This document shows, one piece after another, positions 5,301 to 60,975 of a DNA stretch of 64,000 bases. The stretch's first letter is position 1; each line of letters starts with the position of its first letter. The notes under the pieces were generated by a model. That model did not search any database and was not told the DNA's origin. It worked only from the letters and a program-made list of their open reading frames with translations. Origin of the DNA: an uncultured Lachnospiraceae bacterium (GTDB lineage Bacteria > Bacillota > Clostridia > Lachnospirales > Lachnospiraceae); assembly GCA_902760415.1 (NCBI GenBank), contig CACWGK010000003.1, positions 217 through 64,216 of the forward strand, read 5' to 3'. The translations under genes were made by a program, and so were the position numbers.

Positions 5301-6883
5301 CAGGTTATGATCCTGTGACTGGTCAGAATATGGGAGGTCGTAAGAAGATTGATGTAGCTGTTGATGCAGCTAAGGAAGCTGTAGATGCGCTTAATAGAAG
5401 TGATTATGTGGGCGTTGTTGCATTTAGTGATGACTTTAACTGGGTTCAGTCGATTGTTCTCGCGGAAGATAAGGAAGCGATAAAAGGTAAGATAGAAACG
5501 CTTGGCATAATGGGCGGTACAGTTATAAAGCCAGCGGTTATCGATGCGGCTAAGTCGCTCACCTCAGTAGATGCAGGAGTTAAACATATAATCCTTCTAA
5601 CAGATGGCGAAGGTGAAACCACAGATTTCAGTGATGCTATAGAGCTAATAAATGATAATAACATTACTCTCTCTACTGTTGCAGTAGGATCGGATTCAGA
5701 TACTAAGCTGCTGGAGAAACTGGCAGAAGAGTGTAATGGACGATATTACTTTTCAGATTCATCATCAGATGTACCTAAGATATTTGCGGAAGAGGTATAT
5801 CTGTCAGGAACAGCATATTATAAAAATGGAGACTTTTCCCTGTATACTAGCAACTCAAATCTAGTATCCGGTCTCTACGAGGACGGTATATCTAACATTA
5901 CCGGTTATATAGCTACGTCTACAAAGAGTGGAGCGCGCGAAGTCATCACTACAAGTGAGGATGATCCACTGCTATCTAGCTGGCAGTATGGTCTGGGACA
6001 CAGCGTTGCCTGGATGACAAATGCGTCTGGAGACTGGAACGCCTCTCTCGCTTCTCAGCAGGATTATCTGGAAATGTGGAAAAGAATGCTGGATTATACA
6101 AGCATGGATAATGAGCTGGGTAAGGATGCGGTTTCTGTGTACAAGAGACGAGGCAAGATAGAGATAAGTTACTCGGCAAGTGAATATTCGGAAGACACAT
6201 CAGTAGTAGGAGTCTGTACTTCTCCATCTGGAGTTACAGAGGAGCTGGCACTTGAACCATCAGATCCAGGTAACTATACTGCTAGCTTCGAACCAAAAGA
6301 AATGGGAGTTTATATCATTAATATTCGCCGAAAAGAAGGGGAGGATACGGTCGCATCAACCACAGCCCTGGAAACTCTTGAGTTTTCTGATGAATATAGA
6401 CGAGATCTGTCAAATGCAAACTTCATAAGCTTTATAGAAAATAATGGAAGAATGCTGGAGACAGGCACAAAGCTATATACAAAGGTGAAGGGCGTAAATC
6501 AGAATAAGAGAGATATTACAGATATAATCATTATCCTATCTATTGTAATGCTTCTTATAGATATAGTGATCAGACGATTTGATCTCAGTCGTAGGCTCGT
6601 AAGTCTTGGCTCTTCAGGCGTACACGAAAAACCTAAGAAAAATGATATAAAACAATCGAAGGTTATCAAACCTGAGGCAGTGAGCGTGGAGGCTTCTCAG
6701 TCAGTAGTGAACCAGAATGTAAATGGGGTTCAGACTACTGATTCATATGCAGGCACACCGGTAGAACAAGAAGTTCTAGGTAAGAAGCATAGAAAGAAAA
6801 AGAATAAGCCGAAAGAGGAGCCGCAGTCAGAAGGCCTTGATATGGCAACTCTGCTCCAGAAGAAAAAAGACCGTAATCTATAG
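2378..6883 (+). CDS. Giant (1501 aa) membrane protein: BatA-type N-terminal double-TM domain plus three VWA domains
   Basis: The N-terminus LPLIALVGVPIIIILYLMKPKG...VPSVLLW is the aerotolerance-type N-terminal domain. There are three MIDAS-like starts (ILVIDTTGSM, IFLVDMSDSN, AMVIDCSGSMD), internal and C-terminal TM helices, and a Lys-rich tail. Confidence 0.8.
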   Translation: MTFASLLPLIALVGVPIIIILYLMKPKGVRKVVPSVLLWKNAERNERSTTFSKKLIKNILMFIEIMALLFLMLAAMSPAIKRNVSGSSKSTILVIDTTGSMQFEDEGSGSRFEEAIRDAKDFVETSSGEVSIITCGESVEVLANKSRDKQKMKRLLSGIEPTDASGDIRDAEGIMESLECEDIIVFTDGNGAAGLKDLTSKLSLDIKVYGKPSANAGLTQVSMKKNEEGLYDIAVGYQTKGIKTASFDISLYDAEGNLLDVRNISLTEDSSNTILSLGKDVKGEYVRAELTGYGEDALSRDNVAYAVKTDSSLAASYFVGAGNTFYEKAYQAVAGESIVKVTSDSDVPDEEKNVLIYDKAELVNKNKNRLVQGYHPKDAKEVKGAIVTVITGDLIKDMSNYTFGASNLYILDCPSWAEPLMVINQGSEDEAVVAYYGEENGVRQVVLGFDIRDSEYPLMAEFPIFIADALEYLTDESLVREKYILAGEELTLSPSVSSNMKLTSASGGTSNLEVAGLSKLEDGDKKEYFVTRYPSSEGDGSQDIQSMSYIQQADYGIKFGSLKKICLVIALILIILDWVIYIRRRMHVKKPELIWRIALTVLVLLSIIGVNLPGRKHKTTTIFLVDMSDSNIANLQEEESYIREQIELLPAGESYGIVTFGRNAVTEQFVNNEKDYYGIATNPDRTATNIEDAAEYAISLIPDNRLGRIVVLTDGKETVGDISAVKDKLEKNDVEICGLLYEAEYGNDIYIQNVDMPDKLATGDAYNIKVTVYSTYETNATLKLWDDSELEDETKVKLSKGENTFVLNCVAGDDSIEQKNVTIEADGDTVLENNSMVTASLVDSPEKILLVSGIKEDSSGLENILKSLNKDVTTVSALSAPKDITGVLKYQTIILDDCHINDLPEEFPQLLQTFVRDYGGGLITTGGKESYAPGGYKDTILEDILPVDMTPKGVDEAPSLAMAMVIDCSGSMDSAGYDPVTGQNMGGRKKIDVAVDAAKEAVDALNRSDYVGVVAFSDDFNWVQSIVLAEDKEAIKGKIETLGIMGGTVIKPAVIDAAKSLTSVDAGVKHIILLTDGEGETTDFSDAIELINDNNITLSTVAVGSDSDTKLLEKLAEECNGRYYFSDSSSDVPKIFAEEVYLSGTAYYKNGDFSLYTSNSNLVSGLYEDGISNITGYIATSTKSGAREVITTSEDDPLLSSWQYGLGHSVAWMTNASGDWNASLASQQDYLEMWKRMLDYTSMDNELGKDAVSVYKRRGKIEISYSASEYSEDTSVVGVCTSPSGVTEELALEPSDPGNYTASFEPKEMGVYIINIRRKEGEDTVASTTALETLEFSDEYRRDLSNANFISFIENNGRMLETGTKLYTKVKGVNQNKRDITDIIIILSIVMLLIDIVIRRFDLSRRLVSLGSSGVHEKPKKNDIKQSKVIKPEAVSVEASQSVVNQNVNGVQTTDSYAGTPVEQEVLGKKHRKKKNKPKEEPQSEGLDMATLLQKKKDRNL

Positions 6884-8797: not shown

Positions 8798-8838
8798 TAA
8801 ATGAGTCAATAGGATACCTATTGGCTCATTTTTTTTAT
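8798..8838 (+). terminator. Rho-independent terminator of the GGGtGRT operon
   Basis: Stem AAATGAGTCAATAGG / CCTATTGGCTCATTT (one G-U pair), a 3-nt loop, then a run of 8 T. Confidence 0.8.
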
Positions 8839-14166: not shown

Positions 14167-14223
14167 TTTCATTTATCAATAACTATTAATTGATAAATCT
14201 TAGGAAATGTGAGGAAAATAAAT

Positions 14224-16992
14224 ATGAGAAAGATTACGAGCCCACTTAAGAAAAGGGTTCCAAGAGAACTCGTTGGAGAGTGGCGTAAATATGTTGTTAT
14301 TGCACTTTTCCTGATTCTCATGATCGGGTTTATATCAGGAATGTATGTTGCCAACAACAGTATGCTTACTTCTGCTGATAAGAAAAAGACAGAATATAAT
14401 CTTGAGGATGGCTGTTTTGAAACTGCAGAAAAAGCGAGCAATGAGATGATCAAGGCTCTTGAAAAGGGCGAGAAAGCTGATGTTAAGCAGTATTATCTGG
14501 ACAAGGGATATGAAGAGGCAGATAAGGAAGTCAAGAAAGCAATTGATGAGAAAATCCCTGGAGAGATAGAAAAAGCTGTTAAGGATGGAATAGAGAAAGA
14601 AGTTCGTGCTCAGGCAACTGAGGGAGTTGAAGCTCAGATAGCTCAGTATTCTAATATGGGTGCTAAGGTATCGGATTCTGAGAAAGAGAAGATGATACAG
14701 GATATTGTTGATGAGAATCTTCAGGCTGCACTTGATGAATACTACGATGATGCGTATCAGACAGCATACGATAAGTTCATGGATGAGGAATATGAGGATA
14801 CCCTGGAGGATGCCAAGAAGGAAGCGTATGAAGAAGTCGAAGATACGGTAGAGGAGGAATATGAGAAAGCGGCAGATAAGTATGATCTGGATAATCCAGA
14901 TTATGAGGCTGTTCCGATAAAGATATATGAAAACTTCTACAAGGATTCCGGTGAAGATAGAGATCTCGATGGAGAAAAGGACGGTAATATTCGTGTATAT
15001 AAGGACAGAGATGATGTAGATCTTTACAGCATTCATGAGGGTAAGATGCCATCTTCTGCAGACGAGATAGCAATCGACAGAATGCATGCTGATAACGTAA
15101 AGGTTAAGATTGGCGATACTATAAGAGTGGGCGGTCAGGACTTTAAGGTCACTGCACTTGTTGCTCTAGTTAACTATAGTACACTTTATGAGAAGCCAAC
15201 GGATTCAATGTTCGATGCAATATACTTCGATGTTGCTATGGTGACTGATGAGGGCTTTGACAGAATAAAGAATAATATTCATTATAACTACGCTTGGACC
15301 TATAATGTTAAGCCTGTTGATGAGGTAGAAGAGAAAGCTTTATCTGAAAATGTTATGGCTGCGCTTATATCTCAGTCTGTAGTAAATGGCGAGGATGATG
15401 AACCTCTAGAGATAGAGAACTTCCTTCCAAATTATTCAAATAATGCGATTCATTTCGCGACAGATGATATGGGTGGTGATAAGGCGATGGCTGGAATCCT
15501 CCTATATATACTAGTGGCTGTGCTTGCATTTATCTTTGCTATAACGATAAGTAACACGATTACAAAAGAGTCTTCGGTTATTGGAACCCTTCGAGCATCG
15601 GGATATACAAAGGGTGAGCTAATCGTTCACTATATGACAATGCCTGTTCTTGTAACCTTGATAGCAGCGATAATTGGAAATATCCTGGGATATACAGTTT
15701 TCAAAAATGTAGTAATTGGAATGTATTATAATTCATACAGTCTTCCGACTTATGAAACTTATTGGACGTCAGATGCATTTATCAAGACAACTATTGTTCC
15801 AGTGATCATCATGTTTGTGATCAACCTGACAGTAATCGTTAGAATGATGCGCTTCTCGCCACTTAAGTTCCTGAGACATGATCTTAAGATAAAGAAGAGA
15901 CGTAAGGCGGTCAGACTTCCTAAGTGGAAGTTCCTTTCAAGATTTAGAGCGCGTATCTTGCTTCAGAATATACCTAACTATATAGTGCTTGTTCTGGGTA
16001 TATCATTTGTAATGCTGATGCTTTCTATGGCAGTTGGCTTCCCGGATTCGCTGGATGTGTATAAGTCAAATGTTACTGATATGATGTTTGCAAAGTATCA
16101 GACTATTCTTACCTCAACAGAGGATGAGGATGAAAATCCTATAGAGACTACGACGAAGTCTGCTGAGAAGTTCGCAATGAATGGACTTCAGTATGTTTAT
16201 AAGGATCATAAGGAATCGGTATCGGTATATGGAGTAGAAGATAAGAGTAAGTATATTGATATTCCAGATTCGCTTATGGAAAATGAGGTTTATATATCTA
16301 CTACATTTGCTGAGAAATACGGCATCGAAGTAGGTGATACATTTAAACTGGATGCCAGATACGAAAATGATGTCTACACCATGAAGGTTGCTGGAATCTA
16401 TGATTATTCAGGCGCACTTACTGTCTTTATGCCAATTGATAATTATAGAGAAATGTTTGACGAGGATGAAGATTTCTTCACAGGCTTTATGGCAAATGAA
16501 GAGATTGAAGGAATCGATGATGAGTATATAGCAACCACTATAACGGAAGATGATGTCCTGAAGATATCGAGACAGCTGGATCATTCCATGGGTTCATATA
16601 TGAAGTATTTCCAGGTGGTATGTATCATACTATCTGCGGTACTTATCTACCTGCTTACTAAGATAATCATAGAGAAGAATGAAAATGCTATCTCTATGGT
16701 AAAGATTCTAGGATATGAGAATAAAGAAATCAGCGGATTATATATGACGTCCACAACCATCGTGGTAATATTTGCTTGTATAGTTGGTATAGTACTCGCA
16801 TACTTTGGAATGGGTGAAATCTTCAAGATATATCTTATGAGTATGGAAGGATGGTTCCACTATGTTGTGACACCGCTTGGATTTGTGAAGATGTTTGTCT
16901 TCGTATTTGCAGCATATCTTATCGTAATGATTATAGATTATCGCCGTATCAAGAAGATACCGATGGACGAAGCGTTAAAACATGTAGATTAA
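14224..16992 (+). CDS. ABC transporter permease with two FtsX domains and large extracytoplasmic domains
   Basis: Two blocks of FtsX-type TM helices, each preceded by a large soluble domain. The first soluble domain carries an about 200-aa highly charged D/E/K-rich segment. GAGG RBS lies 9 nt before ATG 14224; the track start is GTG 14209. Confidence 0.85.
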   Translation: MRKITSPLKKRVPRELVGEWRKYVVIALFLILMIGFISGMYVANNSMLTSADKKKTEYNLEDGCFETAEKASNEMIKALEKGEKADVKQYYLDKGYEEADKEVKKAIDEKIPGEIEKAVKDGIEKEVRAQATEGVEAQIAQYSNMGAKVSDSEKEKMIQDIVDENLQAALDEYYDDAYQTAYDKFMDEEYEDTLEDAKKEAYEEVEDTVEEEYEKAADKYDLDNPDYEAVPIKIYENFYKDSGEDRDLDGEKDGNIRVYKDRDDVDLYSIHEGKMPSSADEIAIDRMHADNVKVKIGDTIRVGGQDFKVTALVALVNYSTLYEKPTDSMFDAIYFDVAMVTDEGFDRIKNNIHYNYAWTYNVKPVDEVEEKALSENVMAALISQSVVNGEDDEPLEIENFLPNYSNNAIHFATDDMGGDKAMAGILLYILVAVLAFIFAITISNTITKESSVIGTLRASGYTKGELIVHYMTMPVLVTLIAAIIGNILGYTVFKNVVIGMYYNSYSLPTYETYWTSDAFIKTTIVPVIIMFVINLTVIVRMMRFSPLKFLRHDLKIKKRRKAVRLPKWKFLSRFRARILLQNIPNYIVLVLGISFVMLMLSMAVGFPDSLDVYKSNVTDMMFAKYQTILTSTEDEDENPIETTTKSAEKFAMNGLQYVYKDHKESVSVYGVEDKSKYIDIPDSLMENEVYISTTFAEKYGIEVGDTFKLDARYENDVYTMKVAGIYDYSGALTVFMPIDNYREMFDEDEDFFTGFMANEEIEGIDDEYIATTITEDDVLKISRQLDHSMGSYMKYFQVVCIILSAVLIYLLTKIIIEKNENAISMVKILGYENKEISGLYMTSTTIVVIFACIVGIVLAYFGMGEIFKIYLMSMEGWFHYVVTPLGFVKMFVFVFAAYLIVMIIDYRRIKKIPMDEALKHVD

Positions 16993-17075
16993 AAAATGAG
17001 TCACTTCTTTGCTCCGACGTAACAGCTGACTCAAAAATGAGTCAGCAGTTACGTCGAAGCAAGAGGTGACTCATT
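16993..17075. repeat. Palindromic repeat element, inverted-dimer copy A
   Basis: AAAATGAGTCAC...CTGACTCAAAAATGAGTCAGCAGTTACGTCG...GGTGACTCATT. It shares TGAGTCA/TGACTCA ends and the TTACGTC-GACGTAA core with copies at 30163, 40075, 57525 and 60722. It fills the gap between convergent stop codons. Confidence 0.9.
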
Positions 17076-17078
17076 CGT

Positions 17079-18140
17079 TTATTTAACGAGTGAATCGATG
17101 ATGGAGGTTATGCTGGTTATGGAGTCTGCAAGCTCACTAGTCTGCATAGCCTCTATATATTTATCTCTGTTTGAATATACTTCTCTTATACCAGTTAGTA
17201 GTGTTTCGTTACTAACTGCCTCTTCTTCGATTACGTAACTGTAACCGCTTTTCTCAAAGGACTGAGCATTGAGAATCTGATCTCCGCGGCTTGCGGCCTT
17301 TGATAATGGAATCAGAAGATTTGGTTTTCTTATAGCAAGTAGTTCACAGATTGCATTTGCACCAGCGCGTGATATAACTACATCAGCTAGGGCAAACATG
17401 TCTGGGAGCTGTTCTTTTATAAACTCATACTGAACGTAACCTTTTTTATCTTTGATATCAGGGTTCAACTTACCTTTTCCGGTAAGATGAATGACATTGA
17501 ACTCCTTCAGTAATTCGTCAAGACATCCCCATATTGCTTTATTTATAGCAACACTTCCTGTGCTTCCGCCAACTACGAGTAGAGTTGGCTTATCATCTGT
17601 GAATCCACAGAACTCTCGGGCTTTTTCTTTGTCGCCGTTAAAAAGCTCCTGTCTGATAGGTGTACCAGTTACTGTTGCACGGTCGCTGAAGAGCTCTTTG
17701 GTCTCTGGAAAATTACAGCAGATTTTTGTAGCCTTTGGAAGAGCTATCTTGTTGGCAAGTCCTGGAGTCATATCTGATTCGTGGATAACGACAGGAATGT
17801 GCAGATGTGCTGCCATCAGTACAACAGGGACAGTGACAAATCCTCCCTTTGAGAAGACTACATCAGGTTTTATCTTCTTCAGTATTCTCTTCGCATCACC
17901 AAAGCCCTTGTTGACTCTGAAAGGATCTGTGAAGTTCTTAAGATCGAAGTAGCGTCTTAGCTTTCCTGAAGATATTCCGTAGTAAGGAATACCAATCTCT
18001 TCGATAAGTTTTTTCTCGATACCATTATATGTTCCAATATAGCTGATCTCGTATCCTAATTCCTTAAGACGAGGAATCATTGCGATATTTGGAGTTACAT
18101 GTCCGGCTGTACCACCGCCGGTAAGTATAATCTTCTTCAT
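17079..18140 (-). CDS. murG: UDP-N-acetylglucosamine--N-acetylmuramyl-(pentapeptide) pyrophosphoryl-undecaprenol GlcNAc transferase
   Basis: N-terminus MKKIILTGGGTAGHVTPNIAM and the C-terminal region ISRAGANAICELLA are typical of MurG. It is the only - strand gene. Confidence 0.9.
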   Translation of the reverse strand: MKKIILTGGGTAGHVTPNIAMIPRLKELGYEISYIGTYNGIEKKLIEEIGIPYYGISSGKLRRYFDLKNFTDPFRVNKGFGDAKRILKKIKPDVVFSKGGFVTVPVVLMAAHLHIPVVIHESDMTPGLANKIALPKATKICCNFPETKELFSDRATVTGTPIRQELFNGDKEKAREFCGFTDDKPTLLVVGGSTGSVAINKAIWGCLDELLKEFNVIHLTGKGKLNPDIKDKKGYVQYEFIKEQLPDMFALADVVISRAGANAICELLAIRKPNLLIPLSKAASRGDQILNAQSFEKSGYSYVIEEEAVSNETLLTGIREVYSNRDKYIEAMQTSELADSITSITSIIDSLVK

Positions 18141-26292: not shown

Positions 26293-29200
26293 ATGATATC
26301 GAAGTTTAGTGTCAAACGACCATACACTGTATTCGTGGTTGTGGTTGCAGTAATTGTTGTTGGAATAGTTGCGCTGATGAGAATGACAGCGGATCTTCTT
26401 CCAGATATGAATCTTCCTTATGTTGTTGTTATAACAACTGATATGGGAGCCAGTCCTGAGACAGTAGAGAAAGAGGTTACAGCCCCGATAGAAGCCTCTC
26501 TTGCTACAACGTCTAATCTTAAGAATATTCAGTCTATGTCCTATAACAGCTACTCAACGGTAATCCTTGAGTATGAACAAAGTTCTAACATGGACGCCAC
26601 AATGATTGAGATTCAGCAGAGTCTGGATCAGATAGAAGGTTCATTTGGCGATTCTATCGGTACACCGATGGTTATGCAGCTTAATCCTGACATGCTTCCA
26701 GTTATGGTTGCTGCCGCAAATGTATCAGATATGGATTCTATAGAATTAACTGACTATATCGAATCAGACATTCTTCCACAGCTTGAATCTATCGAAGGTG
26801 TTGCTTCGGTTAGTGCTACTGGTGGTGTAACTGAGACAGTTCAGGTTACCATGAACCAGGATAAGATAGATAAGCTAAATGATAAGATTATGGCGGAGAT
26901 TGATGATCAGTTCCAGGATGCTAAGGATGAACTTCAGTCTTCTAAGGAAGATATAGAGAGTGGACAGTCACAGGTATCTTCTGGAAAGAAAACTCTTGCG
27001 AATTCTGTCAGTGAAAATCTTGCAACTCTGGAAAGTACACAGATAGAGCTATACCAGACAGAAGATGAACTTACTGAACAGAAAGAGACCTACCAGGATT
27101 TATATGATACTCTTGGTACAACTATTGAAACACTGAATACAACATATGACAGTGCATGTACTCTTGCAAATGGAATAGAATCACTAAGTTCTGTTATTTC
27201 CCTATATGATCAGGGGCTTCTGGATGATACAACATTTGCTGCTACTGCAGGAATGGATATCAATACAGCTAAAGCTTCCCTGGCAACATATACTGCACAG
27301 CTCGATGCTGTAAATGCTCAGATTAAGGAAAATACTGCTTCACTTGCAGACTACGATATAACAGTAAATACATATGAGGATCTTCCAACTGCTGTAGCTA
27401 CTCTTGAAGCTAAAAGAGTTGAGATTAACACGGGTATTGAAACTATCAATACTGCTATAGAAGAGGTTGAGTCTGGAAAGACTACAACAAGCGAGGCTAT
27501 AGAAGCTCTTAACAAGACAGGTATTGAGCAGTCAATCTCACTTGCTGAGACTTCAGCAACACTCTCACAGGGACTTACTAGTATTGAGAGTGCTGAGGAT
27601 ACACTTGATGAAACACTTGAATCCACAAAGGATGCTGCAGACTTAAATAATGTACTTTCTATAGATGTACTTAACAATCTTCTTAAGGCTCAGAACTTTG
27701 AGATGCCTGCAGGATATGCTTCTGGAAAGAATGCGTCTGATGGACAGTATCTTGTTAAGATTGGCGAAGACGTTACTGATGCTGAAGAACTCTCTAAGCT
27801 TATTCTTATAGATCTAAACATGGATAGTGTTGGAGTTATTAGACTTGAGGATGTTGCTGATGTAGAGCAGGTTGATGATTCTGCTGAAGTATATGCTAAG
27901 TTAAATGGTAGTCCTGGTATGCTCATTTCATTTGAGAAGCAGACAGGTTACTCAACTGGTGATGTTACAGATGTTATCTTAGATAAGTTCGAAAGCCTTG
28001 AGAGAACAGAAGATGAGGATCTTCATTTCTCTGTTCTGATGAATCAGGGTGTCTATATAGATTTGATCGTGAAGTCAATTCTTCAGAACATGCTCCTAGG
28101 TGCTGGACTTGCAATTATCGTTCTGATCATCTTCCTTCGCGATATCAGACCTACAATTATCATAGCGTGTGCGATTCCGCTTTCGGTTATATTCGCTATC
28201 GTTCTGATGTACTTTACAGATATCTCACTTAATATCATTTCTATGTCGGGACTCACTCTGGGTATAGGAATGTTGGTGGATAACTCAATCGTTGTTATCG
28301 AAAATATCTACCGACTTCGCAAGGAAGGCGAATCTATAAAGAAGGCGGCAGTTTACGGTGCGAGCCAGGTTGCTGGAGCTATCACTTCATCAACTATGAC
28401 AACTATGTGTGTATTCCTGCCAATCGTCTTCACTGAGGGACTTACAAGACAGCTCTTCGTAGACATGGGTCTTACGATAGCATTTACTCTTACAGCTTCT
28501 CTGCTTGTGGCCCTTACACTTGTTCCAGCTATGGCACAGGGACTTCTGAAAAATGTTAAAGAGAAGGAAGAGGGCACTGATGGAGCGTTCATGCGTTTCT
28601 ATGATAAGTTCCTTAGAGCTATGCTTAAGTTTAAGCCACTTGTGTTCCTCATAATGCTGCTTCTTCTTGGAGCTTCTGTCGCACTTGCACTTTCTCGTGG
28701 TACTGAGTTTATGCCGGAGATGCAGAGTGATCAGATTAATATCTCGATGTCGGCTCCTAAGGGCGAAAAGAGAACATTTGAGGAAATGACTGGATATGCT
28801 GATGAGCTGGTTGATAGACTTATGGAGATACCTGAGATAGAAACTCTTGGTGCCATGATCGGAAATGGTACGACTATGGGTGCTCTCAATATGTCTGTTG
28901 GAGACGATGTATCTATATATGTTCTCCTCAAGGAAGATACAAAGATAACTAATTCTGAAATCATAGATAAGATCAATAAGGCTGCTGAGGGTATTGACTG
29001 TGAGGTTGATGCTAGCGCTGAGATCATGGATATGAGTATGCTGACAGGTAGCGGTATCTCAGTTATGATCAAGGGACGCGATATGCAGGTTCTTCAGAAA
29101 CTTGCTCAGGAGTCTGCGGATGCACTTGCTGCTACTGATGGTATCGAAGAGGTTGATAATGGTCTCGACAACATGACCAAGACCTTCGTCATCACGGTAG

Positions 29201-30150
29201 ATAAGAAGAAGGCGGCAGAATATGGTATGACTGTTGCGCAGGTATTCAGCACTGTATCAGCTAAGCTTGCTTCTACATCAGCAACTACCGCTATTGAGAC
29301 TGACCTTAAGGATTATGATGTATTTGTTGCTACTGATGAGCAGTCAGAGATTACTATAGATGACTTAAAGAAACTTAAGTTTGAATATACTGATAAGGAA
29401 GAAAATGAAACTAAAGAGATTCCTCTTTCTAAGATAGTTACATTCTCTGAGGCAGAGGAATTGTCACAGGTTCAGCGTGATAATCAGAACAGATACATCA
29501 GTGTATCAGGTTCACTTAAGGAAGGCTATAACATAGGTCTTGTAGGTAGAAAGGCTCAGGCAAATCTCGACAAGATTGGTGTACCAGAGGGTTACTCTAT
29601 AACTCTTGAAGGTGAGAATCAGACTATAAATGATGCGATGGAGCAGGTAATGCTTATGATGCTTCTGGCTGTAATCCTCATTTATCTGATAATGGTTGCA
29701 CAGTTCCAGAGTCTTAAGTCACCATTTATCATAATGTTTACTATACCTCTTGCCTTCACAGGTGGATTCCTGGCATTGTTCCTTACAGGAAAGGCGGTTT
29801 CAGTTATTGCTATGATAGGTTTCGTAATGCTGGCCGGTATCATCGTTAACAATGGTATCGTACTGGTTGACTATGTTAATCAGCTTAGACGTGAAGGAAA
29901 GGCTAAGAAGGATGCTATCATTGAGTCAGCTAAGACAAGACTTCGTCCTGTACTTATGACAGCTCTTACAACCATCATCTCCATGTCAACCATGGCGGTC
30001 GGTATGGGTAAGGGAACTGAGATATCACAGCCTATGGCTATCGTAGTAGTAGGTGGTATGGTCTACGGTACAATACTTACACTTATCCTGGTGCCATGTC
30101 TCTATGATGCATTCAACAAAGAACGCGACATGACAGAAGAAGAAATCTAA
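26293..30150 (+). CDS. RND-family efflux transporter permease (AcrB/SwrC-like) with a large insertion in loop 1
   Basis: 12-TM RND architecture with the conserved GIGMLVDNSIVVIENI and GIIVNNGIVLVDY motifs. It is 1285 aa, versus about 1050 for typical members. Confidence 0.9.
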   Translation: MISKFSVKRPYTVFVVVVAVIVVGIVALMRMTADLLPDMNLPYVVVITTDMGASPETVEKEVTAPIEASLATTSNLKNIQSMSYNSYSTVILEYEQSSNMDATMIEIQQSLDQIEGSFGDSIGTPMVMQLNPDMLPVMVAAANVSDMDSIELTDYIESDILPQLESIEGVASVSATGGVTETVQVTMNQDKIDKLNDKIMAEIDDQFQDAKDELQSSKEDIESGQSQVSSGKKTLANSVSENLATLESTQIELYQTEDELTEQKETYQDLYDTLGTTIETLNTTYDSACTLANGIESLSSVISLYDQGLLDDTTFAATAGMDINTAKASLATYTAQLDAVNAQIKENTASLADYDITVNTYEDLPTAVATLEAKRVEINTGIETINTAIEEVESGKTTTSEAIEALNKTGIEQSISLAETSATLSQGLTSIESAEDTLDETLESTKDAADLNNVLSIDVLNNLLKAQNFEMPAGYASGKNASDGQYLVKIGEDVTDAEELSKLILIDLNMDSVGVIRLEDVADVEQVDDSAEVYAKLNGSPGMLISFEKQTGYSTGDVTDVILDKFESLERTEDEDLHFSVLMNQGVYIDLIVKSILQNMLLGAGLAIIVLIIFLRDIRPTIIIACAIPLSVIFAIVLMYFTDISLNIISMSGLTLGIGMLVDNSIVVIENIYRLRKEGESIKKAAVYGASQVAGAITSSTMTTMCVFLPIVFTEGLTRQLFVDMGLTIAFTLTASLLVALTLVPAMAQGLLKNVKEKEEGTDGAFMRFYDKFLRAMLKFKPLVFLIMLLLLGASVALALSRGTEFMPEMQSDQINISMSAPKGEKRTFEEMTGYADELVDRLMEIPEIETLGAMIGNGTTMGALNMSVGDDVSIYVLLKEDTKITNSEIIDKINKAAEGIDCEVDASAEIMDMSMLTGSGISVMIKGRDMQVLQKLAQESADALAATDGIEEVDNGLDNMTKTFVITVDKKKAAEYGMTVAQVFSTVSAKLASTSATTAIETDLKDYDVFVATDEQSEITIDDLKKLKFEYTDKEENETKEIPLSKIVTFSEAEELSQVQRDNQNRYISVSGSLKEGYNIGLVGRKAQANLDKIGVPEGYSITLEGENQTINDAMEQVMLMMLLAVILIYLIMVAQFQSLKSPFIIMFTIPLAFTGGFLALFLTGKAVSVIAMIGFVMLAGIIVNNGIVLVDYVNQLRREGKAKKDAIIESAKTRLRPVLMTALTTIISMSTMAVGMGKGTEISQPMAIVVVGGMVYGTILTLILVPCLYDAFNKERDMTEEEI

Positions 30151-30162: not shown

Positions 30163-30245
30163 AATGAGTCACCTTCCACGTTCGACGTAAAAGGTGACTC
30201 ATTTTTGAGTCACTTTTACGTCGAACGTGCGGGGTGACTCATTTT
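30163..30245. repeat. Palindromic repeat element, inverted-dimer copy B
   Basis: AATGAGTCACCTTCCACGTTCGACGTAAAAGGTGACTCATTTTTGAGTCACTTTTACGTCGAACGTGCGGGGTGACTCATTTT, located 12 nt after the RND gene stop. Confidence 0.9.
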
Positions 30246-30339: not shown

Positions 30340-31215
30340 ATGGCTAAGAAGTTAGGAAGAAATGATGCATGTTGGTGTGGAAGTGGCAAGAAATATAAGG
30401 TGTGTCACGAAGCATTTGACCGCAAGATTGAAATGATCAAGAATCAGGGACATATAGTTCCTACACACAAGATGATCAAAACCCCAGAACAGATCGCACT
30501 CATTAAGGAGAGTGCAAAGGTTAATGTCGAATGTCTCGATGTAGTTGCAGACAAGATATGTGCCGGAATGAGCACAGAAGACATCAATCGTATAGTAAAT
30601 GAAGTATGTGAGAAGCATGGCGCAATCCCTGCTCCACTTAATTATGAAGGATTTCCAAAGAGCGTATGTACATCTATAAATGATGCTGTCTGCCACGGAA
30701 TCCCAAGTAAGGATGAGATACTTCAGGATGGCGACATCATTAATGTTGACTGTTCAACTATATTAAATGGATATTTCTCAGATTCATCTCGTATGTTCCT
30801 TATTGGAAATGTATCTGATGAGAATAAGAAACTTGTAGAAACAGTTCGTGAGAGTATATACCTTGGTCTTGAAGAAGTTAAACCTTGGAACTTCCTTGGA
30901 GATATGGGAGAGGTTGTCCATGAACACTGTAAGGCAGCTGGTTATAGCGTGGTTCGTGAGATTGGTGGACACGGTGTAGGTATCGAGTTCCACGAAGATC
31001 CATGGGTAAGCTATGTAACTAAGCGTGGAACAGAGATGCTGATGGTTCCTGGTATGATGTTCACTATCGAACCTATGGTAAACATTGGGGGACCTGAAGT
31101 ATTTGTAGATTCCGAAAATGACTGGACAGTATACACAGAGGATGGTTCTATGTCAGCTCAGTGGGAGATTCAGGTTCTTGTAACAGAAGAAGGCCACGAA
31201 ATCATTTCATGGTAG
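30340..31215 (+). CDS. map: Type I methionine aminopeptidase with N-terminal SEC-C zinc motif
   Basis: SEC-C motif CWCGSGKKYKVCH. MetAP core residues appear in DGDIINVDCS, GHGVG and EPMV contexts. A GAGGAAG RBS precedes ATG 30340; the track ORF starts at GTG 30292. Confidence 0.9.
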   Translation: MAKKLGRNDACWCGSGKKYKVCHEAFDRKIEMIKNQGHIVPTHKMIKTPEQIALIKESAKVNVECLDVVADKICAGMSTEDINRIVNEVCEKHGAIPAPLNYEGFPKSVCTSINDAVCHGIPSKDEILQDGDIINVDCSTILNGYFSDSSRMFLIGNVSDENKKLVETVRESIYLGLEEVKPWNFLGDMGEVVHEHCKAAGYSVVREIGGHGVGIEFHEDPWVSYVTKRGTEMLMVPGMMFTIEPMVNIGGPEVFVDSENDWTVYTEDGSMSAQWEIQVLVTEEGHEIISW

Positions 31216-39210: not shown

Positions 39211-40347
39211 ATGGAAGTAAAAGATTTTTACTACGATCTCCCTGAGGAACTGATCGCACAGGATCCGCTGGAGAAGAGAGATGAGTCTCGCTTCATGGTG
39301 ATACACCGTGATACTGGTGAGATAGAACATAGGAAGTTTCATGATATTATTGAATATTTAAATCCTGGTGACTGCCTTGTCATTAACGATACCAAGGTTA
39401 TTCCTGCACGTCTTTTGGGCGAGAAGGAAGAGACGGGAGCTGCTATAGAGGTGCTTCTTTTGAAGGACGCGTCAGAAAGATATGCAGAACTTGCAAAATC
39501 AGAGAAGAATACTCGTATCTGGGAGTGCCTTGTTAAGCCTGGTAAGAAAATGAAGCCTGGTGCCCGCGTGGTCTTCGGCAAGGACGAAGTGACTGGAGAG
39601 GCTCTGCTTAGTGCCGAGGTTATCGATACAGTTGAAGAGGGAAATCGAATCATTCGTTTTGAGTATGACGGTATCTGGGAAGAGGTGCTGGATAAGTTAG
39701 GCGAAATGCCGCTCCCACCATATATAACACATAAGCTTCAAGATAAAACTCGTTATCAGACTGTATATGCGAAAAATGAGGGTAGTGCAGCCGCTCCTAC
39801 AGCAGGTCTTCATTTCACAAGTGAGCTTCTGAAGGAGATAGAAGATAAGGGCATAAAGATTGCAAGACTTACACTACATGTAGGACTTGGTACATTTCGA
39901 CCGGTTAAGGTAGAAAAGATAGAAGACCATCACATGCATACTGAGTACTATGAGTTAACTCAGGAAGCTGCTGATATAATAAATGAGACACGCGCCAAGG
40001 GGGGCAGAGTGATCTCAGTAGGAACTACAAGTACCAGAACTCTGGAGACAATCGGAACACTTCAGGGCCTTCACAAAAATGAGTCAGCAGTTACGTCCGA
40101 CGTAAAAAGTGACTCATTTTTACAGGAGATTAAACCGGCTTCGGGCTGGACTAATATATTTATATATCCTGGATATGAGTTCAAAGTTGTAGATTCCTTA
40201 ATAACAAACTTCCATTTGCCAGAGTCAACACTTATAATGTTAGTGTCTGCTTTCTATAACAGAGACGACGTTATGGCGGCATATGAGGAAGCTGTGAAGG
40301 AGAGATATAGATTCTTCTCCTTTGGGGATGCTATGATGTTGATCTAG
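39211..40347 (+). CDS. queA: S-adenosylmethionine:tRNA ribosyltransferase-isomerase
   Basis: [50 protein letters not shown] and [18 protein letters not shown] are all QueA hallmarks. The track ORF starts upstream at 39142, but homology begins at ATG 39211. Confidence 0.95.
40075..40122. repeat. Palindromic repeat element, monomer copy D, in-frame inside queA
   Basis: AAAAATGAGTCAGCAGTTACGTCCGACGTAAAAAGTGACTCATTTTTA is translated as [16 protein letters not shown]. It is near-identical to the copy at 60721-60768. Confidence 0.9.
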
Positions 40348-44135: not shown

Positions 44136-45404
44136 ATGAATCGTAGACAGCAGATAAAACTTGAAAATGCAAAAATCTTTGCTAGAAAGTATATATTCTC
44201 TGGTAGATATATAGTTAGAAATACACTTGCAGTTATGGGTCTCGCTACACTTGCAGGTGGAGCATACCTTACAGTACAGGTTGCTGGAACAGGAGTTGCT
44301 TCTGGCATGGCAGTAAATACTAAGGCTGAACAAGTTGAAGAGACTGAGGCAGAGCCTGAAGTTGAGACATACGCTATCCAGATTGGTGAGGATTCTCTTG
44401 TAAAGGCTGATTCAGTCGACGCACTCTATGTTCGTTTAGAGGGTGAGGACGTACTTACAGTTTCTAATGATGTTGATAGACTCACAAAGCCTGAGTACGA
44501 TATGACAGGTAAGTTCATCGTTACAACAGAGGGACTTAACGTCAGAGCTGAGGCTTCAGAAGATGGAAATATCCTTAAGGTTCTTAACACTGGTGATTAC
44601 GGTGATGTCGTAGGAACAGAGGGCGAGTGGACTATAGTTGCTCATCTTGATACAGAGGGATATGTTAAGACAGAATATATTGTTACTGATGATGAGGCAA
44701 CAAAGGTTGCTGAGAAGGCTGCATCTGATGGCGTAAGCTACAGAGAAGCACTTGGTGTTAAGGAAGTTCTCGTTGCTGATGCAAATAATCAGGAGCAGGC
44801 TACTACAGAAGTTGCAATAGATAGAAAAGTTGAGATAGATACTACAGAGGTTGCTAAGGAAGATACAACTAAGACAGGTTCTACTGAGACAACAACTCAG
44901 GCGCCTGCACAGGCTACAACAGAGGCGCCTACACAGGCTGCTACAGAAGCACCTACTCAGGCTCCAACAGAGGCGCCTACACAGGCTCCTACTGAGGCAC
45001 CTACAGAAGCTCCAACAGAAGCACCTACAGAGGCTACAGCAGTTGCATCTTCTGATCTTTATCTTCTTGCGGCTATTGTATATGCAGAGTCAGGTGGAGA
45101 GTGTTATGAAGGACAGCTTGCAGTTGCAAGTGTCGTAATGAATAGATTATATAGCGGTCAGTGGGGTGGCTCACTTTCAAGCGTTATATATGCACCTAGC
45201 CAGTTCTCTGGAGCTTATACATCAGCATTTCAGACTGCACTTTCAACAGGTGGTTCATCTACATCACTTCAGGCCGCTCAGGATGCTCTTAATGGAGCTA
45301 ACAATATCGGAGGCTACATGAGCTTCAGACCTACTTGGAACACACCTCAGTCAGTATATGACAGTGGTAACTATATTCAGATAGGAAATCATGTCTTCTA
45401 CTAA
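44136..45404 (+). CDS. SleB-type cell wall hydrolase with SH3-like domain and T/E/A/P/Q repeat linker
   Basis: N-terminal TM anchor, an SH3b-like segment (GLNVRAEASEDGNILKVLNTGDYGDVVGTEGEWTIV), and the C-terminal Hydrolase_2 motif LLAAIVYAESGGECYEGQLAVASVVMNR. Confidence 0.8.
   Translation: MNRRQQIKLENAKIFARKYIFSGRYIVRNTLAVMGLATLAGGAYLTVQVAGTGVASGMAVNTKAEQVEETEAEPEVETYAIQIGEDSLVKADSVDALYVRLEGEDVLTVSNDVDRLTKPEYDMTGKFIVTTEGLNVRAEASEDGNILKVLNTGDYGDVVGTEGEWTIVAHLDTEGYVKTEYIVTDDEATKVAEKAASDGVSYREALGVKEVLVADANNQEQATTEVAIDRKVEIDTTEVAKEDTTKTGSTETTTQAPAQATTEAPTQAATEAPTQAPTEAPTQAPTEAPTEAPTEAPTEATAVASSDLYLLAAIVYAESGGECYEGQLAVASVVMNRLYSGQWGGSLSSVIYAPSQFSGAYTSAFQTALSTGGSSTSLQAAQDALNGANNIGGYMSFRPTWNTPQSVYDSGNYIQIGNHVFY
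44889..45038 (+). repeat. Coding tandem repeat (TEAPTQA / TEAP units)
   Basis: Imperfect 12-21-nt repeats ACAGAGGCGCCTACACAGGCT encode TTQAPAQATTEAPTQAATEAPTQAPTEAPTQAPTEAPTEAPTEAPTEAT. Confidence 0.9.
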
Positions 45405-56327: not shown

Positions 56328-57530
56328 ATGAGTTTAAATGATACGCCATCGGGAGAACGTTTAAGAATAAGTTTTTTTGGAAAAAGAAATGCTGGTAAGT
56401 CCAGCCTTGTAAATGCGGTAACAAATCAGCAGCTGGCTGTGGTTTCAGATACTTTGGGAACTACTACGGATCCAGTGCAGAAGGCTATGGAACTTCTGCC
56501 TTTGGGACCTGTTCTTATAACAGATACTCCTGGATTTGATGATTCTGGCAAGCTTGGTGAACTCCGGGTTAAGCGTACTAAGCAGATACTGAACAAGACT
56601 GATATAGCAATTCTGGTTACGGATGCGACAAGACAGTCGGATGTGACAGAACTAGAGCTGCTTAGAATATTTGAAGAGAAGTCGATTCCATTTATCATAG
56701 CAAAGAATAAGTCGGATCTACTTGGAGAAGTGCCTGTTAACGAAGATGGCGCTGGAAATGTTATATATGTCAGTGCAACTGAAAAGACGGGGATCGAAGA
56801 GCTGAAGGAGAGAATTGGACATCTGATTCCTTCTGATGGAAATGGACTGAAACTTGTTGGCGATATTATAGAGCCGGGGCAGCTGGTGGTTCTCGTGATT
56901 CCTATAGATAAGGCGGCACCAAAGGGAAGACTTATCTTGCCACAGCAGCAGGCGATTAGAGATATACTCGATGCTGGTGCATTTGCAATCACGACTAGAG
57001 ATACAGAACTTGCTGATTTACTTGAGAAACTCAGGGCCTCTGGACAAAATCCAGACCTGGTAATCACTGATAGTCAGGCATTTGAAAAGGTTAATAAGAT
57101 TGTTCCAAAGGGTATCGAGCTTACTTCATTTTCGATACTGATGGCGCGTTATAAGGGATTCCTTGATACAGCTGTGAAGGGTGCCAGAGCGATTGACGAG
57201 CTAAGCGATGGTGACAAGATTCTGATAAGTGAAGGCTGCACGCACCATAGACAGTGTGGAGATATCGGAACTGTGAAGCTTCCGAAATGGCTATCGGAAC
57301 GAACAGGAAAGAATCTTGTGATCGAGACCACGTCGGGAGCAGATTTCCCAGACAGTCTTGAAGAATACAAGTTAGTAGTACATTGTGGCGGCTGTATGTT
57401 AAGTGCGAGAGAAATGGTATATCGCATGAAGTGTGCTGAGGATATGAACGTTCCATTCACCAACTACGGAATAGCCATAGCCTACATGAAGGGAATCCTC
57501 GATAGAACCATCGCCCCAATATATAAATGA
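56328..57530 (+). CDS. hydF: [FeFe]-hydrogenase H-cluster maturation GTPase HydF
   Basis: G1 GKRNAGKSS, G3 DTPG, G4 NKSD, and the C-terminal cluster motif EGCTHHRQCGDIG ... VHCGGC. It is colinear with Thermotoga HydF as I recall it. Confidence 0.9.
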   Translation: MSLNDTPSGERLRISFFGKRNAGKSSLVNAVTNQQLAVVSDTLGTTTDPVQKAMELLPLGPVLITDTPGFDDSGKLGELRVKRTKQILNKTDIAILVTDATRQSDVTELELLRIFEEKSIPFIIAKNKSDLLGEVPVNEDGAGNVIYVSATEKTGIEELKERIGHLIPSDGNGLKLVGDIIEPGQLVVLVIPIDKAAPKGRLILPQQQAIRDILDAGAFAITTRDTELADLLEKLRASGQNPDLVITDSQAFEKVNKIVPKGIELTSFSILMARYKGFLDTAVKGARAIDELSDGDKILISEGCTHHRQCGDIGTVKLPKWLSERTGKNLVIETTSGADFPDSLEEYKLVVHCGGCMLSAREMVYRMKCAEDMNVPFTNYGIAIAYMKGILDRTIAPIYK

Positions 57531-57608
57531 GTCACCTATCACGTCCGACGTAAATGGTGACTCAAAAATGAGTCAGCATTTACGTCGGACGTGGAAAGTG
57601 ACTCATTT
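57525..57608. repeat. Palindromic repeat element, inverted-dimer copy C (overlaps hydF stop codon)
   Basis: AAATGAGTCACCTATCACGTCCGACGTAAATGGTGACTCAAAAATGAGTCAGCATTTACGTCGGACGTGGAAAGTGACTCATTT. The hydF TGA (57528-57530) lies within the element terminus. Confidence 0.9.
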
Positions 57609-57634
57609 GGTTTGAGATTTTTTGGAGAATTAGC

Positions 57635-58740: not shown

Positions 58741-59490
58741 ATGATTAAGTTTGCAATATATGGAAAAGGCGGAATAGGAAAGTCTACACTGTCGTCGAAT
58801 CTTTCTGCGGCCCTCGCAAAGAGAGGACTCACAGTTATGCAGATTGGCTGTGATCCAAAGGCTGATTCAACGTCACTTCTATGTCCGAAGGAGAAGATAA
58901 CAACTGTTCTTGATCTTGTTAGAAGTGGTAAGCCATTTACCCTGGAGGATATGGTCAAGGAAAGTACAGCAGGCGTTTTATGTGTTGAGGCAGGAGGCCC
59001 GGTTCCTGGACTTGGTTGTGCAGGCCGAGGCATTATAAATGCTTTGGAATCGCTGGAGCAGAAGGGCGCTTATGATGTGTATAAGCCTGATGTCGTCATT
59101 TACGATGTACTCGGAGACGTGGTCTGCGGAGGCTTCACTATGCCTATGCGTAAGGGCTACGCGGATAAGGTATACATAGTAACATCGGGTGAGAAGATGG
59201 CGATATACGCGGCTGCCAATATAGCTATGGCGGTTGAGAACTTCAAGAAGCGTGACTACGCAAAACTTGGTGGAATCATACTGAACTGCCGTGGAGTGGA
59301 AAATGAGATAGACAATGCTGAGACTCTTGCAAAGGATTTCAGTACAAGTGTTCTGCAGGTTATTCCAAGAAGCCCACTGTTTGAAAAGGCCGAGGCTGAA
59401 GGAAAGACTGTAATCGAACTCTTCCCGGAAAGCGATGTTGCGGAGAAGCTGCTTTCGCTTGCAGATATAGTTATCGAGCAGGGTGAATAA
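58741..59490 (+). CDS. NifH-like ATPase / nitrogenase-like reductase component 2 (copy 1)
   Basis: P-loop [10 protein letters not shown]. Both [4Fe-4S] ligand contexts are conserved (GLGCAGRG and [12 protein letters not shown]). It is only 249 aa and starts 18 nt after hydE. Confidence 0.85.
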
Positions 59491-59547: not shown

Positions 59548-60975
59548 ATGCTGGAAGCGTTACATACAAAAGAAAATCGAATACCAGAACCAGTTCTTCT
59601 TAAAGATATAGACTTTGAGACCCCATTTTACGAAGGACTTCAGTATAATCCACCAGCGCGTGGTGTGTGGAATATAGTCCACACAGGTATGCTGATTCCA
59701 GAGGCACATCAGGTATATGTCTGTGCACAGGGGTGTCTCAGGGGTGTTATACTCACGGCGGCTGAGATGAATCTGATGGATAGGATGTCCTGGGTATCAC
59801 TTCGTGAGAAGGATATGTGGAATGGAGAAATGGAGTCCCGCGTGGTTGAAGGCGTTGCTCACATAGTGAGTCAAATGGAGAACCGCCCAAGATGTATACT
59901 TGTTTACCTTAGCTGTATGCATATGTTTGAGGGCTGTGACTTCAAGGTGATTGCTGATGAGCTGTCCGAGAGATTTCCTGGTACAACATTTGTTGACTGC
60001 TATATGACGCCAACTATGAGAAAAAGTATCTCGCCGGACGCTATGATGAAGGCTAGTCTCTATGATCCGATAATTCCTCTACCTAAGAAGGAGAATCTGG
60101 TGGGACTCGTTGGCTGCGATAGAGAGACAGACAGAACCTCAGATATCTTCGAGATTGCAAAGCTGGCAGGACGCGACATATGGGAGATTAATTCCTGCGA
60201 GACTTATGATCAGTACCTAGAACTTGGTAGTGCTGCGCGTCTTATATCATATCTTCCGGTCGCAAATGTGGGAGTCAGAAAGCTGGCTGGTCGAATCGGT
60301 GCTGAGTGGAAATATCTACCTATAAGCTACGACTTCGAGGAATGCAAGGAAAATGTATGGCAGCTGGCAGAGTTCCTGACAGGGACTGAACTAAGAGGAC
60401 AGCAAGCAGATAAAGAGAAGAATGTTATAGAACATATTGAGGAATATATCTCTGAAAAGAGTAAACTGGCGGACGAAGCATTCAAAAAAGCTCATGCGAA
60501 GATTAAGGATACACCGATAGTTATAGATTATTCGGCAACCCCTCGTCCTCTCGGACTTGCGCTGCTGCTTACAAAGTATGGATTTAATGTAACTACCATT
60601 TATACAGATATATTCCAGAAGGAAGAACGTGCAGCGTACGAAGAACTTCTGGAGCTGAGGCCAGAAATGAAGATATATTCCACCATGGACCCAGCCATGC
60701 GATTTGCTGACAACGAATATGAAAATGAGTCAGCATTTACGTCGGACGTAAAAAGTGACTCATTTTTAAAGGGGGATAAGATACTAGCTATCGGTCAGAA
60801 GGCAGCATACTTTGTGCATACACCGTATTTCGTAAATATTGCTGATGGCGGTGGAATGTATGGAATCGACGGACTTAGACGAATGGCAGAGGAATTGCTG
60901 GATGCCTATAAGAAAACAAAGGATACTAAGAAGTTGATAAGTCATAAGGGTATCGGTTGCGCCAGCTGTTTGTAG
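59548..60975 (+). CDS. Nitrogenase component-1-type (NifD/K/E/N, BchN/B-like) oxidoreductase subunit
   Basis: 475 aa. The Cys motifs VCAQGC and LSCMHMFEGCDF sit where component-1 proteins carry cluster ligands. The LVGLVGCDRE...DIFEIAKLAG pattern is typical of the family. Confidence 0.7.
   Translation: MLEALHTKENRIPEPVLLKDIDFETPFYEGLQYNPPARGVWNIVHTGMLIPEAHQVYVCAQGCLRGVILTAAEMNLMDRMSWVSLREKDMWNGEMESRVVEGVAHIVSQMENRPRCILVYLSCMHMFEGCDFKVIADELSERFPGTTFVDCYMTPTMRKSISPDAMMKASLYDPIIPLPKKENLVGLVGCDRETDRTSDIFEIAKLAGRDIWEINSCETYDQYLELGSAARLISYLPVANVGVRKLAGRIGAEWKYLPISYDFEECKENVWQLAEFLTGTELRGQQADKEKNVIEHIEEYISEKSKLADEAFKKAHAKIKDTPIVIDYSATPRPLGLALLLTKYGFNVTTIYTDIFQKEERAAYEELLELRPEMKIYSTMDPAMRFADNEYENESAFTSDVKSDSFLKGDKILAIGQKAAYFVHTPYFVNIADGGGMYGIDGLRRMAEELLDAYKKTKDTKKLISHKGIGCASCL
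60721..60768. repeat. Palindromic repeat element, monomer copy E, in-frame inside the Nif-like gene
   Basis: GAAAATGAGTCAGCATTTACGTCGGACGTAAAAAGTGACTCATTTTTA is translated as [16 protein letters not shown]. Confidence 0.9.

Follow-up and report, generated by a model that had tools for sequence, protein, structure and literature searches.

Short palindromic repeats linked with a transposase are known from the REPIN-RAYT or REPtron systems, in which repetitive extragenic palindromes (REPs) and the REP doublets forming hairpins (REPINs) occur together with REP-associated tyrosine transposases (RAYTs; Nunvar 2010, PMC2817692; Bertels & Rainey 2011, PMC3116915; Ton-Hoang 2012; Messing 2012, PMC3479197). 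Examples are the REPs and bacterial interspersed mosaic elements (BIMEs) of E. coli with TnpA-REP (PDB 4ER8), and the REPINs of Pseudomonas fluorescens. REPs are imperfect palindromes of 20-45 nt that are mainly extragenic and reach high copy numbers. In canonical REPs the foot of the hairpin carries a 5' GT[AG]G tag, and the RAYTs that go with them belong to subclasses 2.2, 2.4, 2.5, 2.7, and 2.8 (PMC6006769). Frame-preserving REPs inside genes and stop codons derived from REPs are already known in the REP literature. REPIN-RAYT systems have been studied as long-lived "replicators within genomes," nearly only in Proteobacteria; the REP/RAYT literature searched contains no mention of REPs in Firmicutes or Lachnospiraceae. 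The DNA considered here, called the window, is a stretch of 64,000 nucleotides from an uncultured Lachnospiraceae bacterium (contig CACWGK010000003.1), and it carries a family of palindromic repeats that is probably (at about 0.78) a REP/REPIN-type non-autonomous family with a RAYT-type Y1 (HUH) transposase as its likely spreader.

A second group of related enzymes has been described under three names, TIRtron/TIRYT (Di Nocera et al., 2013, PMC3733652), TnpA-Y1 subclass 2.1 (Quentin et al., 2018, PMC6006769), and RAYT Group 1 (Bertels et al., 2017, PMC5581495), which are equivalent. TIRYT genes are flanked by terminal inverted repeats (TIRs), and some self-complementary families occur in dimers and are moderately abundant (PMC3733652). 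No REP-like sequences were found for subclass 2.1 (Quentin et al., PMC6006769). The 16-mers flanking Group 1 genes have a mean of about 12 occurrences per replicon, and Group 1 is present in Clostridia (Bertels et al., PMC5581495). The TIRYT account of Di Nocera et al. is the closest published description of the repeat/transposase arrangement reported below.

In the window the family has five loci with eight units, arranged as three dimers and two monomers, and the units follow the pattern A4-TGAGTCA-N6-ACGTC-S-GACGT-N6-TGACTCA-T4. The central palindrome TTACGTCSGACGTAA has four matches at ≤2 mismatches against 0.01 expected, and AAAATGAGTCA at ≤1 mismatch is matched 14 times (2.1 expected), a number reached in 0 of 100 shuffles. 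The family is also recovered by an unsupervised repeat search of the window. Dimer A (16993..17075, no strand), two inverted units around an AAAA loop, fills the gap between the convergent permease and murG genes. It starts immediately 3' of the TAA of an FtsX/MacB-type permease open reading frame (ORF; 14209..16992) and ends 3 nt short of the murG stop codon (17079-17081, minus strand). Its center is divergent (..CTTCTTTGCTC.. / ..GAAGCAAGAG..), yet the two units remain mutually complementary; it folds at -57 kcal/mol on the plus strand and -59.7 kcal/mol on the minus strand, and the site is filled in 4/4 DNA metagenomes. Dimer B (30163..30245, no strand; -60.8 kcal/mol) has a TTTT loop on the plus strand, i.e., the opposite orientation, and lies 12 nt past the stop of an AcrB-like gene (26293..30150) and 46 nt ahead of map, which encodes an M24 peptidase. 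Dimer D (57524..57609, no strand; -60.2 kcal/mol) has hydF (56328..57530) on one side and a radical-SAM gene (57635..) on the other, and hydF uses as its stop codon the TGA in the first TGAGTCA of the dimer. Monomers C (40076..40120, plus strand) and E (60722..60766, plus strand) are 45-nt in-frame inserts in queA and in an Oxidored_nitro gene, respectively. The dimers (-57 to -61 kcal/mol, z = -11 to -15) form hairpins of about 40 bp with one to three mismatches or bulges, and the monomers (-19.5 and -21.3 kcal/mol, z = -6.5 and -7.5) a hairpin with an internal loop.

The original prediction, made from the letters of the window, had described these five copies, the position of copy A between two convergent stop codons, and its capacity to fold into a long stem. 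All three are borne out, the ends being refined to 57524-57609, 40076-40120, and 60722-60766, and copy A folding like the other dimers; what had been overlooked, and emerges from ORF listing and translation, is that monomers C and E lie within ORFs and in frame. Taken as a whole, the observation is confirmed and its earlier interpretation is partly supported. Rfam yielded 0 matches over the whole window at gathering threshold, and for copy A at E <= 1 the sub-threshold matches were generic miRNA-hairpin models only. Neither Rfam nor the REP/RAYT literature searched provides a catalogued name for the family, in agreement with the earlier failure to recognize one.

A consensus was built on 322 units in 1.1 Mb of matching loci, where 105 dimers and 100 monomers are present. 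Unit 1 of the dimer reads TGAGTCA-CYTNKC-ACGTC-C-GACGT-AACWGS-TGACTCA, and unit 2 is its reverse complement. The unit has a 37-nt core and A/T flanks, with (A)AAA at one end and TTT(T) at the other. Only the 7-bp ends and the 5-bp center of a single unit are self-complementary, so the unit is asymmetric; across the two units of a dimer every position pairs. The dimer, rather than the unit, is the good hairpin because its two units are reverse complements of each other, and the notion of a palindromic unit holds for its ends and center only. Of 104 dimers, 76 pair better between units than within units, and in 22 the two are equal. Dimers with AAAA and TTTT junctions represent one element in two orientations, and the loop shows no clear bias relative to transcription (30 AAAA : 17 TTTT). 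Among 62 distinct dimers, units of the same dimer depart from inverted complementarity at 4.61 positions, compared with 5.49 +/- 0.18 for units taken from different dimers, and 0/20000 permutations match the observed value. The compensating arm variants that had been read from the window copies are thus real, though modest in extent, copy A being the extreme case. In the flank profile of 106 loci AA...TT is 96-97% conserved and is followed by a further A/T or two per side; the flank profiles contain no shared target motif.

The window is 98.8-99.2% identical to rumen metagenome contigs, and the matching proteins carry the NCBI label "MAG: Eubacterium sp." (MAG, metagenome-assembled genome). 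In a genome collection that does not include the window's own genome, the strict pattern occurs only in two cultured relatives, Lachnospiraceae bacterium AC2031 (about 19 units) and NE2001 (one unit); a match in Amycolatopsis was dismissed as one chance palindrome. REP k-mer depth in four metagenomes is 86-124x the single-copy depth of the species, as expected if a genome has about 10^2 copies. At least 120 loci were found in a metagenome scan, the density being one locus per ~13 kb in the window and at least eight loci on a 195-kb conspecific contig. The 191 elements in the collected metagenome loci collapse to 106 distinct sites. Short-read contigs end inside repeats in every run examined.

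Three pairs of filled and empty sites are available, with flanks 97-100% identical, and one of them is within the window species. At 31211..31215 (no strand) the window and run X1 are empty, and strain L131 (99% identical) and run X14 are filled: a 47-48-nt monomer at 31214 is placed within the map stop codon, between TA and G, and rebuilds it as TAA. The inserted segments have ends ragged by a few bases, and no target-site duplication (TSD) is found in 3/3 pairs. Dimer/monomer polymorphism exists at at least six sites, where the monomer corresponds exactly to one unit of the dimer, either 1 or 2, and the length difference is 41 nt; monomers are mostly dimers minus one unit. The further copies and empty sites that were to be looked for according to the original prediction are both present, along with presence/absence polymorphism.

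[quoted passage not shown] Like the present repeats, they are small, non-autonomous, structured, and intergenic, and they are sometimes co-transcribed. A classical MITE, i.e., a deletion derivative of a DDE-type IS moved in trans via its terminal inverted repeats, would explain the inverted TGAGTCA/TGACTCA ends, the small size, the many copies, and the transposase-free window. The TSD-free insertions speak against it, and neither a longer element with the same ends in the ~1.1 Mb of loci nor a parent DDE IS with matching TIRs was seen. The ends pair within one continuous hairpin, unlike classical TIRs, and the repeats consistently border just one gene, that of a Y1/HUH transposase. A MITE origin is highly improbable on these grounds, and of the "REP/MITE-type" element first suggested, the REP-type, non-autonomous half stands and the MITE half falls.

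No RAYT homologue is detected in the window by tblastn, as had been stated of transposases in general, but a cognate Y1 gene is present elsewhere in the window's species. The association is seen in two species. In AC2031, one locus (L002) has seven units in 3 kb and a 266-aa ORF between two near-identical dimers; this ORF matches Y1_Tnp (PF01797, E = 6.6e-15) and scores 43.6 bits, below the cut-off of 80, with the NCBIfam model REP_Tyr_transpos (REP-associated tyrosine transposase). In the window species (L134-L136), the transposase gene (6001-6780) lies between dimers at 5890-5974 and 6791-6876, in a region having five dimers within 3.7 kb, one per intergenic gap. Three observations connect this gene with the window species. 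MAG ERZ28667777 (ENA) carries both the transposase gene and the insert-bearing queA allele, and the NCBI accessions of the transposase (MBP3807435) and QueA (MBP3807081) belong to one series. The transposase contig has depths of 8.1/10.7/14.9/20.3 in four metagenomes, tracking those of single-copy DNA of the species (10.5/14.6/17.1/18.8). The gene is single-copy in the window's own species and lies outside the window.

Homologues are common in rumen Lachnospiraceae (146 matches) and have flanking palindromes that share one design and are specific to each lineage. P0122, which is 61% identical, is flanked by AAAATGAGTCA-ATTCGGCTTTGAGCCAAAC-TGACTCATTTT, where the A4-TGAGTCA...TGACTCA-T4 frame is kept and the center is GGCTTTGAGCC. 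Relatives with 51-57% identity have flanks AAAAGATGACAG...CTGTCATCTTTT, and Butyrivibrio relatives with ~40% identity have flanking 30-nt TIRs containing GGGGACGGTTCTA. The Butyrivibrio TIRs are positioned at L141:1325-1354 / 2247-2276 and L142:1375-1437 / 2242-2310; in L142 there is an inverted pair of the TIR on one side and a direct pair on the other. A second subtype of the repeat, TGAGTCA-...GGCTTTGAGC(C)...-TGACTCA, is present at low copy in AC2031 (L002:4426, L005:7518, L007:4303, and L011:214), and its palindrome is the one beside P0122 in a metagenome contig.

In the transposase alignment the motifs NHVH, GHLFQ (G-H..FQ), Y...NP, and WSS (W.S) are invariant or nearly so, with NHVH and Y116..N120-P121 strictly invariant and the Y motif reading YIIQNP. 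The transposase profile has E. coli TnpA-REP (4ER8) as its sole match in PDB, a single-sequence PDB search giving noise only. An AlphaFold2 (AF2) model of the transposase (mean confidence, pLDDT, 87) likewise has its best Foldseek match in 4ER8 (E = 2e-6, TM 0.68 on target), followed by the TnpA of ISDra2 and IS608 of the IS200/IS605 family (ranks 2-30), so that 4ER8 is the closest enzyme structure as judged from the model. A C-terminal tail of ~110 aa has a weak HTH_23-like signal.

Several features are shared with the REPIN-RAYT systems: the repeats are short imperfect palindromes in ~10^2 copies, mostly in inverted pairs that make a larger hairpin, singlets being decayed forms; a single-copy Y1/HUH gene lies between the same repeats; elements sit downstream of genes, supply stop codons, and lack TSDs. 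The differences concern the hairpin foot, which has no GT[AG]G, the enzyme, which has FQ instead of W[EQ], the ~110-aa C-terminal tail, and a REP_Tyr_transpos score below cut-off, and the host, which is a Gram-positive anaerobe. With the TnpA of IS200/IS605 (IS608, ISDra2) the system shares the HUH/Y1 fold, TSD-free insertion, and, by analogy, probably hairpin recognition; unlike in IS200/IS605, the gene is single-copy, has Y...NP instead of Y...Q, is not accompanied by tnpB, and is far outnumbered by the repeats.

The transposase agrees best with subclass 2.1/Group 1/TIRYT, as suggested by its motifs and the flanks of its homologues rather than by a reference phylogeny. It resembles subclass 2.1 (Table 1, PMC6006769) in NHVH, FQ, Y...NP, SS after the Y motif, a size of ~240-260 aa, and an HTH_23-like C-terminal tail; the published class has ~238 aa and FQ or W[EQ], and its Y[IV]xLNP-like motif is not matched exactly by YIIQNP. 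The TIRs of the ~40%-identical Butyrivibrio homologues (L141, L142) contain GGGGACGG, near the published GGGGWSAS of TIRYT. Unlike in TIRYT, the flanks here are palindromic dimers of the A4-TGAGTCA..TGACTCA-T4 type that do not contain GGGGWSAS and are present in ~100 copies.

The repeats could also spread or be maintained independently of the Y1 enzyme, by replication slippage, recombination, gene conversion, or another enzyme, with incidental flanking of the transposase. Flanking alone is weak evidence, as a dimer is found in every intergenic gap near the gene, and Group 1/2.1 enzymes have been reported without a REP link. The dimer/monomer changes resemble simple slippage or deletion of 41 nt between TGACTCA or TGAGTCA sequences in direct repetition, and a 48-nt deletion at site E, discussed below, is unlike a transposase event. 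Each of four transposase lineages has its own flanking palindrome, however, which an incidental association would hardly explain, and new insertions at unrelated sites, e.g., 31214, need a transposition-like step. Spread without the Y1 enzyme is therefore considered unlikely, though it is the most serious competitor of a REPIN-type family spread by the transposase.

Other points weigh against spreading by this transposase. As judged from sequence, its link to repeat movement is one of association, which may be passive, as nearly all intergenic gaps near the gene are occupied by repeats. The motifs of the enzyme are those of subclass 2.1/Group 1/"TIRYT," which has been described as REP-free (PMC6006769, PMC5581495). 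The GT[AG]G tag is absent from the flank profile of the 106 loci, and CGTC is found solely within the paired center. No cleavage site can be named because the inserted ends are ragged and the targets have no common motif. The estimate of ~10^2 copies rests on metagenome k-mer depth, which may be inflated by related species with the same repeat. Finally, the transposase gene may itself move horizontally because its island is 92-97% identical between species that share only 74-84% identity at other loci, and in this it would differ from classical, vertically inherited REPIN-RAYT pairs. This HTH-transposase-HicB island (L002:1000-3750 compared with L034, L049, and L014) has 92-97% DNA identity between AC2031 and window-type species, while the adjacent flavin-reductase gene is 74% and other syntenic loci are 76-84% identical; the likeness points to recent transfer, gene conversion, or unusually strong constraint, and the island would appear to have been shared recently between species.

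If the repeats are mobilized by the Y1 transposase through a single-stranded DNA route, as the analogy with TnpA-REP and IS200/IS605 suggests, the inverted dimer, composed of a unit, a 4-nt A/T loop, and the reverse-complement unit, is probably the form that replicates. As single-stranded DNA or RNA, the dimer would fold into the ~40-bp hairpin, which the transposase may recognize on single-stranded DNA. The tyrosine would cut and rejoin the strand, and the element would be inserted without target duplication. Surviving copies are nearly always those just 3' of stop codons, and the rare intragenic survivors those in which a 45-nt unit in its constantly open phase entered a tolerant surface loop.

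A wider proposal is made tentatively, at somewhat less than even odds: that this is the first REPIN-like population documented in Firmicutes, GTAG-free, driven by a Group 1/subclass 2.1 enzyme, now active in view of its insertion, dimer/monomer, and deletion polymorphisms in a single rumen species, and with its transposase island recently moved between species. If this is true, the REPIN lifestyle arose more than once in the RAYT family. A populous and at present polymorphic family in rumen Lachnospiraceae that can be cultured, AC2031 being a Hungate isolate, would widen the host range, and, being tied to a transposase class thought to be REP-free, it would offer a second, GTAG-free recognition system to dissect. 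In practical terms, the repeats break short-read assemblies of abundant rumen MAGs, give stop codons to neighboring genes and a 15-residue peptide to conserved enzymes such as QueA, and thereby bear on gene calling and on how variation of protein length in metagenomes is read.

Among the 106 sites, 96 are intergenic, including 81 in co-directional, 14 in convergent, and 1 in divergent gaps, and four are confirmed inside coding sequences (CDSs). For comparison, the gene pairs of this DNA as a background comprise 741 co-directional, 58 convergent, and 55 divergent ones, and convergent gaps are enriched (14 loci vs. ~6.5 expected). All intergenic sites except one (95/96) are downstream of a gene. 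Elements lie at a median of 3 nt from the upstream stop codon and are overlapped by 39 of 109 gene ends. The association with stop codons may reflect survivorship between a stop and the next ribosome-binding site, or target choice.

Such a distribution, with strong stems, A4/T4 flanks, over-representation in convergent gaps, and copy A occupying one of them, would fit host-selected regulatory hairpins, i.e., bidirectional intrinsic terminators or stabilizers of mRNA 3'-ends that are not mobile DNA. Mobility is nevertheless required by near-identity at >100 loci, insertion polymorphism within the species, and four in-frame copies. Rho-independent terminators have a GC-rich stem and then a U-tract of at least 5-8; the T-run following the strong stem here is ~4 nt long, and a terminator scan did not call copy A. 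Repeats are internal to 1.6-4.8-kb contigs assembled from RNA runs and are therefore read through, the RNA data being assembled contigs only, which break at repeats. Host-selected hairpins are thus a very unlikely origin of the family, and any role as terminator or stabilizer would be secondary only; by analogy with the REPs of E. coli, the repeats could plausibly have secondary functions, protecting mRNA 3' ends or causing attenuation or termination where genes converge. The least probable reading is that of a regulon of transcription-factor sites with a TGAGTCA/TGACTCA palindrome. The invariant heptamers and the ACGTC/GACGT core do resemble protein recognition sequences, but their placement does not suit operators: the divergent, promoter-only gap is occupied in only 1/96 intergenic loci, most copies are at stop codons and some within genes, and presence or absence varies among strains.

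The queA gene (39211..40347, plus strand; PF02547, E = 3e-147; PDB 1YY3, E = 7e-122) encodes a tRNA ribosyltransferase-isomerase, to which copy C adds 15 codons in a variable loop. B. subtilis QueA (1YY3) aligns with the window QueA from end to end with one exact 15-residue gap, which corresponds to the insert, and the AC2031 ortholog (89% identical) has no insert. The insert is present in QueA of 28/28 conspecific protein clusters (99-100% identity, 378 aa), and also in four DNA metagenomes. No joint skipping the insert is found in RNA-run assembled contigs that would point to its removal from RNA. An AF2 model of QueA with the insert has a mean pLDDT of 61.6, too low for any use beyond showing that residues 291-303, belonging to the insert, are predicted with low confidence. 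Several close QueA relatives (P0037, P0042, P0043, P0087, and P0097) have other long in-frame insertions of odd composition, up to ~50 and ~45 residues, in two variable loops (alignment A1, columns 135-190 and 395-450); these may be other repeat elements inside queA.

The second gene (59548..60975, plus strand) is nitrogenase component 1-type oxidoreductase-like, as judged from PF00148 and its orthologs, and carries copy E as a 15-codon insert with the orientation and codon phase of copy C. Orthologs have no copy E; the upstream ADNE[YF]E is ancestral, and the insert lies in a variable loop. In a minority allele, window positions 60708-60757 (50 nt) are replaced by CC, making it 48 nt shorter and still in frame. 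It loses 16 codons, comprising most of copy E and five ancestral codons, and makes up about one third of the depth in DNA runs X1 and X7; it is also seen in runs X9 and X33, and in both DNA and RNA runs. The short allele was considered as an empty site and rejected as such, since the five ancestral codons are also gone, which identifies a secondary deletion; its presence in DNA runs shows that it is not RNA processing.

The 45-nt unit corresponds to 15 codons, and one phase is open in all units; of the other phases, one is blocked by two TGAs and one by TAA in many variants. Intragenic copies are always in the phase NES..TSDV..DSF. Confirmed in-frame copies, in 4/106 loci, occur in queA, the Oxidored_nitro gene, a TagH/Wzt-like ABC ATPase, and a SASA-like esterase. 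The ABC ATPase site has an in-frame monomer in one strain and an in-frame direct doublet in another. Three of seven automatic in-CDS calls were rejected, the ORFs being over-extended upstream of the true start.

Rickettsia palindromic elements (RPEs), said to have been described by Ogata et al. in 2000, are alphaproteobacterial palindromic repeats of ~100-150 bp with in-frame positions in protein-coding genes as their main habitat, and are not known to have a transposase. As in RPEs and in intragenic REPs (Di Nocera 2013), the in-frame repeat adds a peptide in tolerant loops. Sequence and size are unrelated to those of RPEs, and only 4/106 loci are intragenic; the family exhibits RPE-like behavior and is not a member of that class.

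Another hairpin in the window, at 8798..8832, has a 15-bp stem, ends AAATGAGTCA / CTCATTT as in the repeat, a different center, and then T8. It folds at -18.9 kcal/mol and is scored terminator-like; it may be a relative or third subtype of the family, or an ordinary intrinsic terminator. Near monomer E there are two NifH-like genes (58741-59490 and 62316-63071), 81% identical over the first ~140 nt. Nitrogenase-component-1-like genes (59548-60975 and 61012-62283) follow at least the first NifH-like gene, and hydF and the radical-SAM gene adjoin; the region looks like a duplicated nitrogenase-like cluster. Coding tandem repeats are present at 44857-45048 (12-nt period, T/E/A/P-rich) and 55620-55786 (K/E-rich, 33/21-nt period). 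Strain-level indels distinguish the window from metagenome contigs at 60987, 50745, and 44964; they are 24-nt and 9-nt insertions, intergenic or A-rich, and a 12-nt deletion in a tandem coding repeat.

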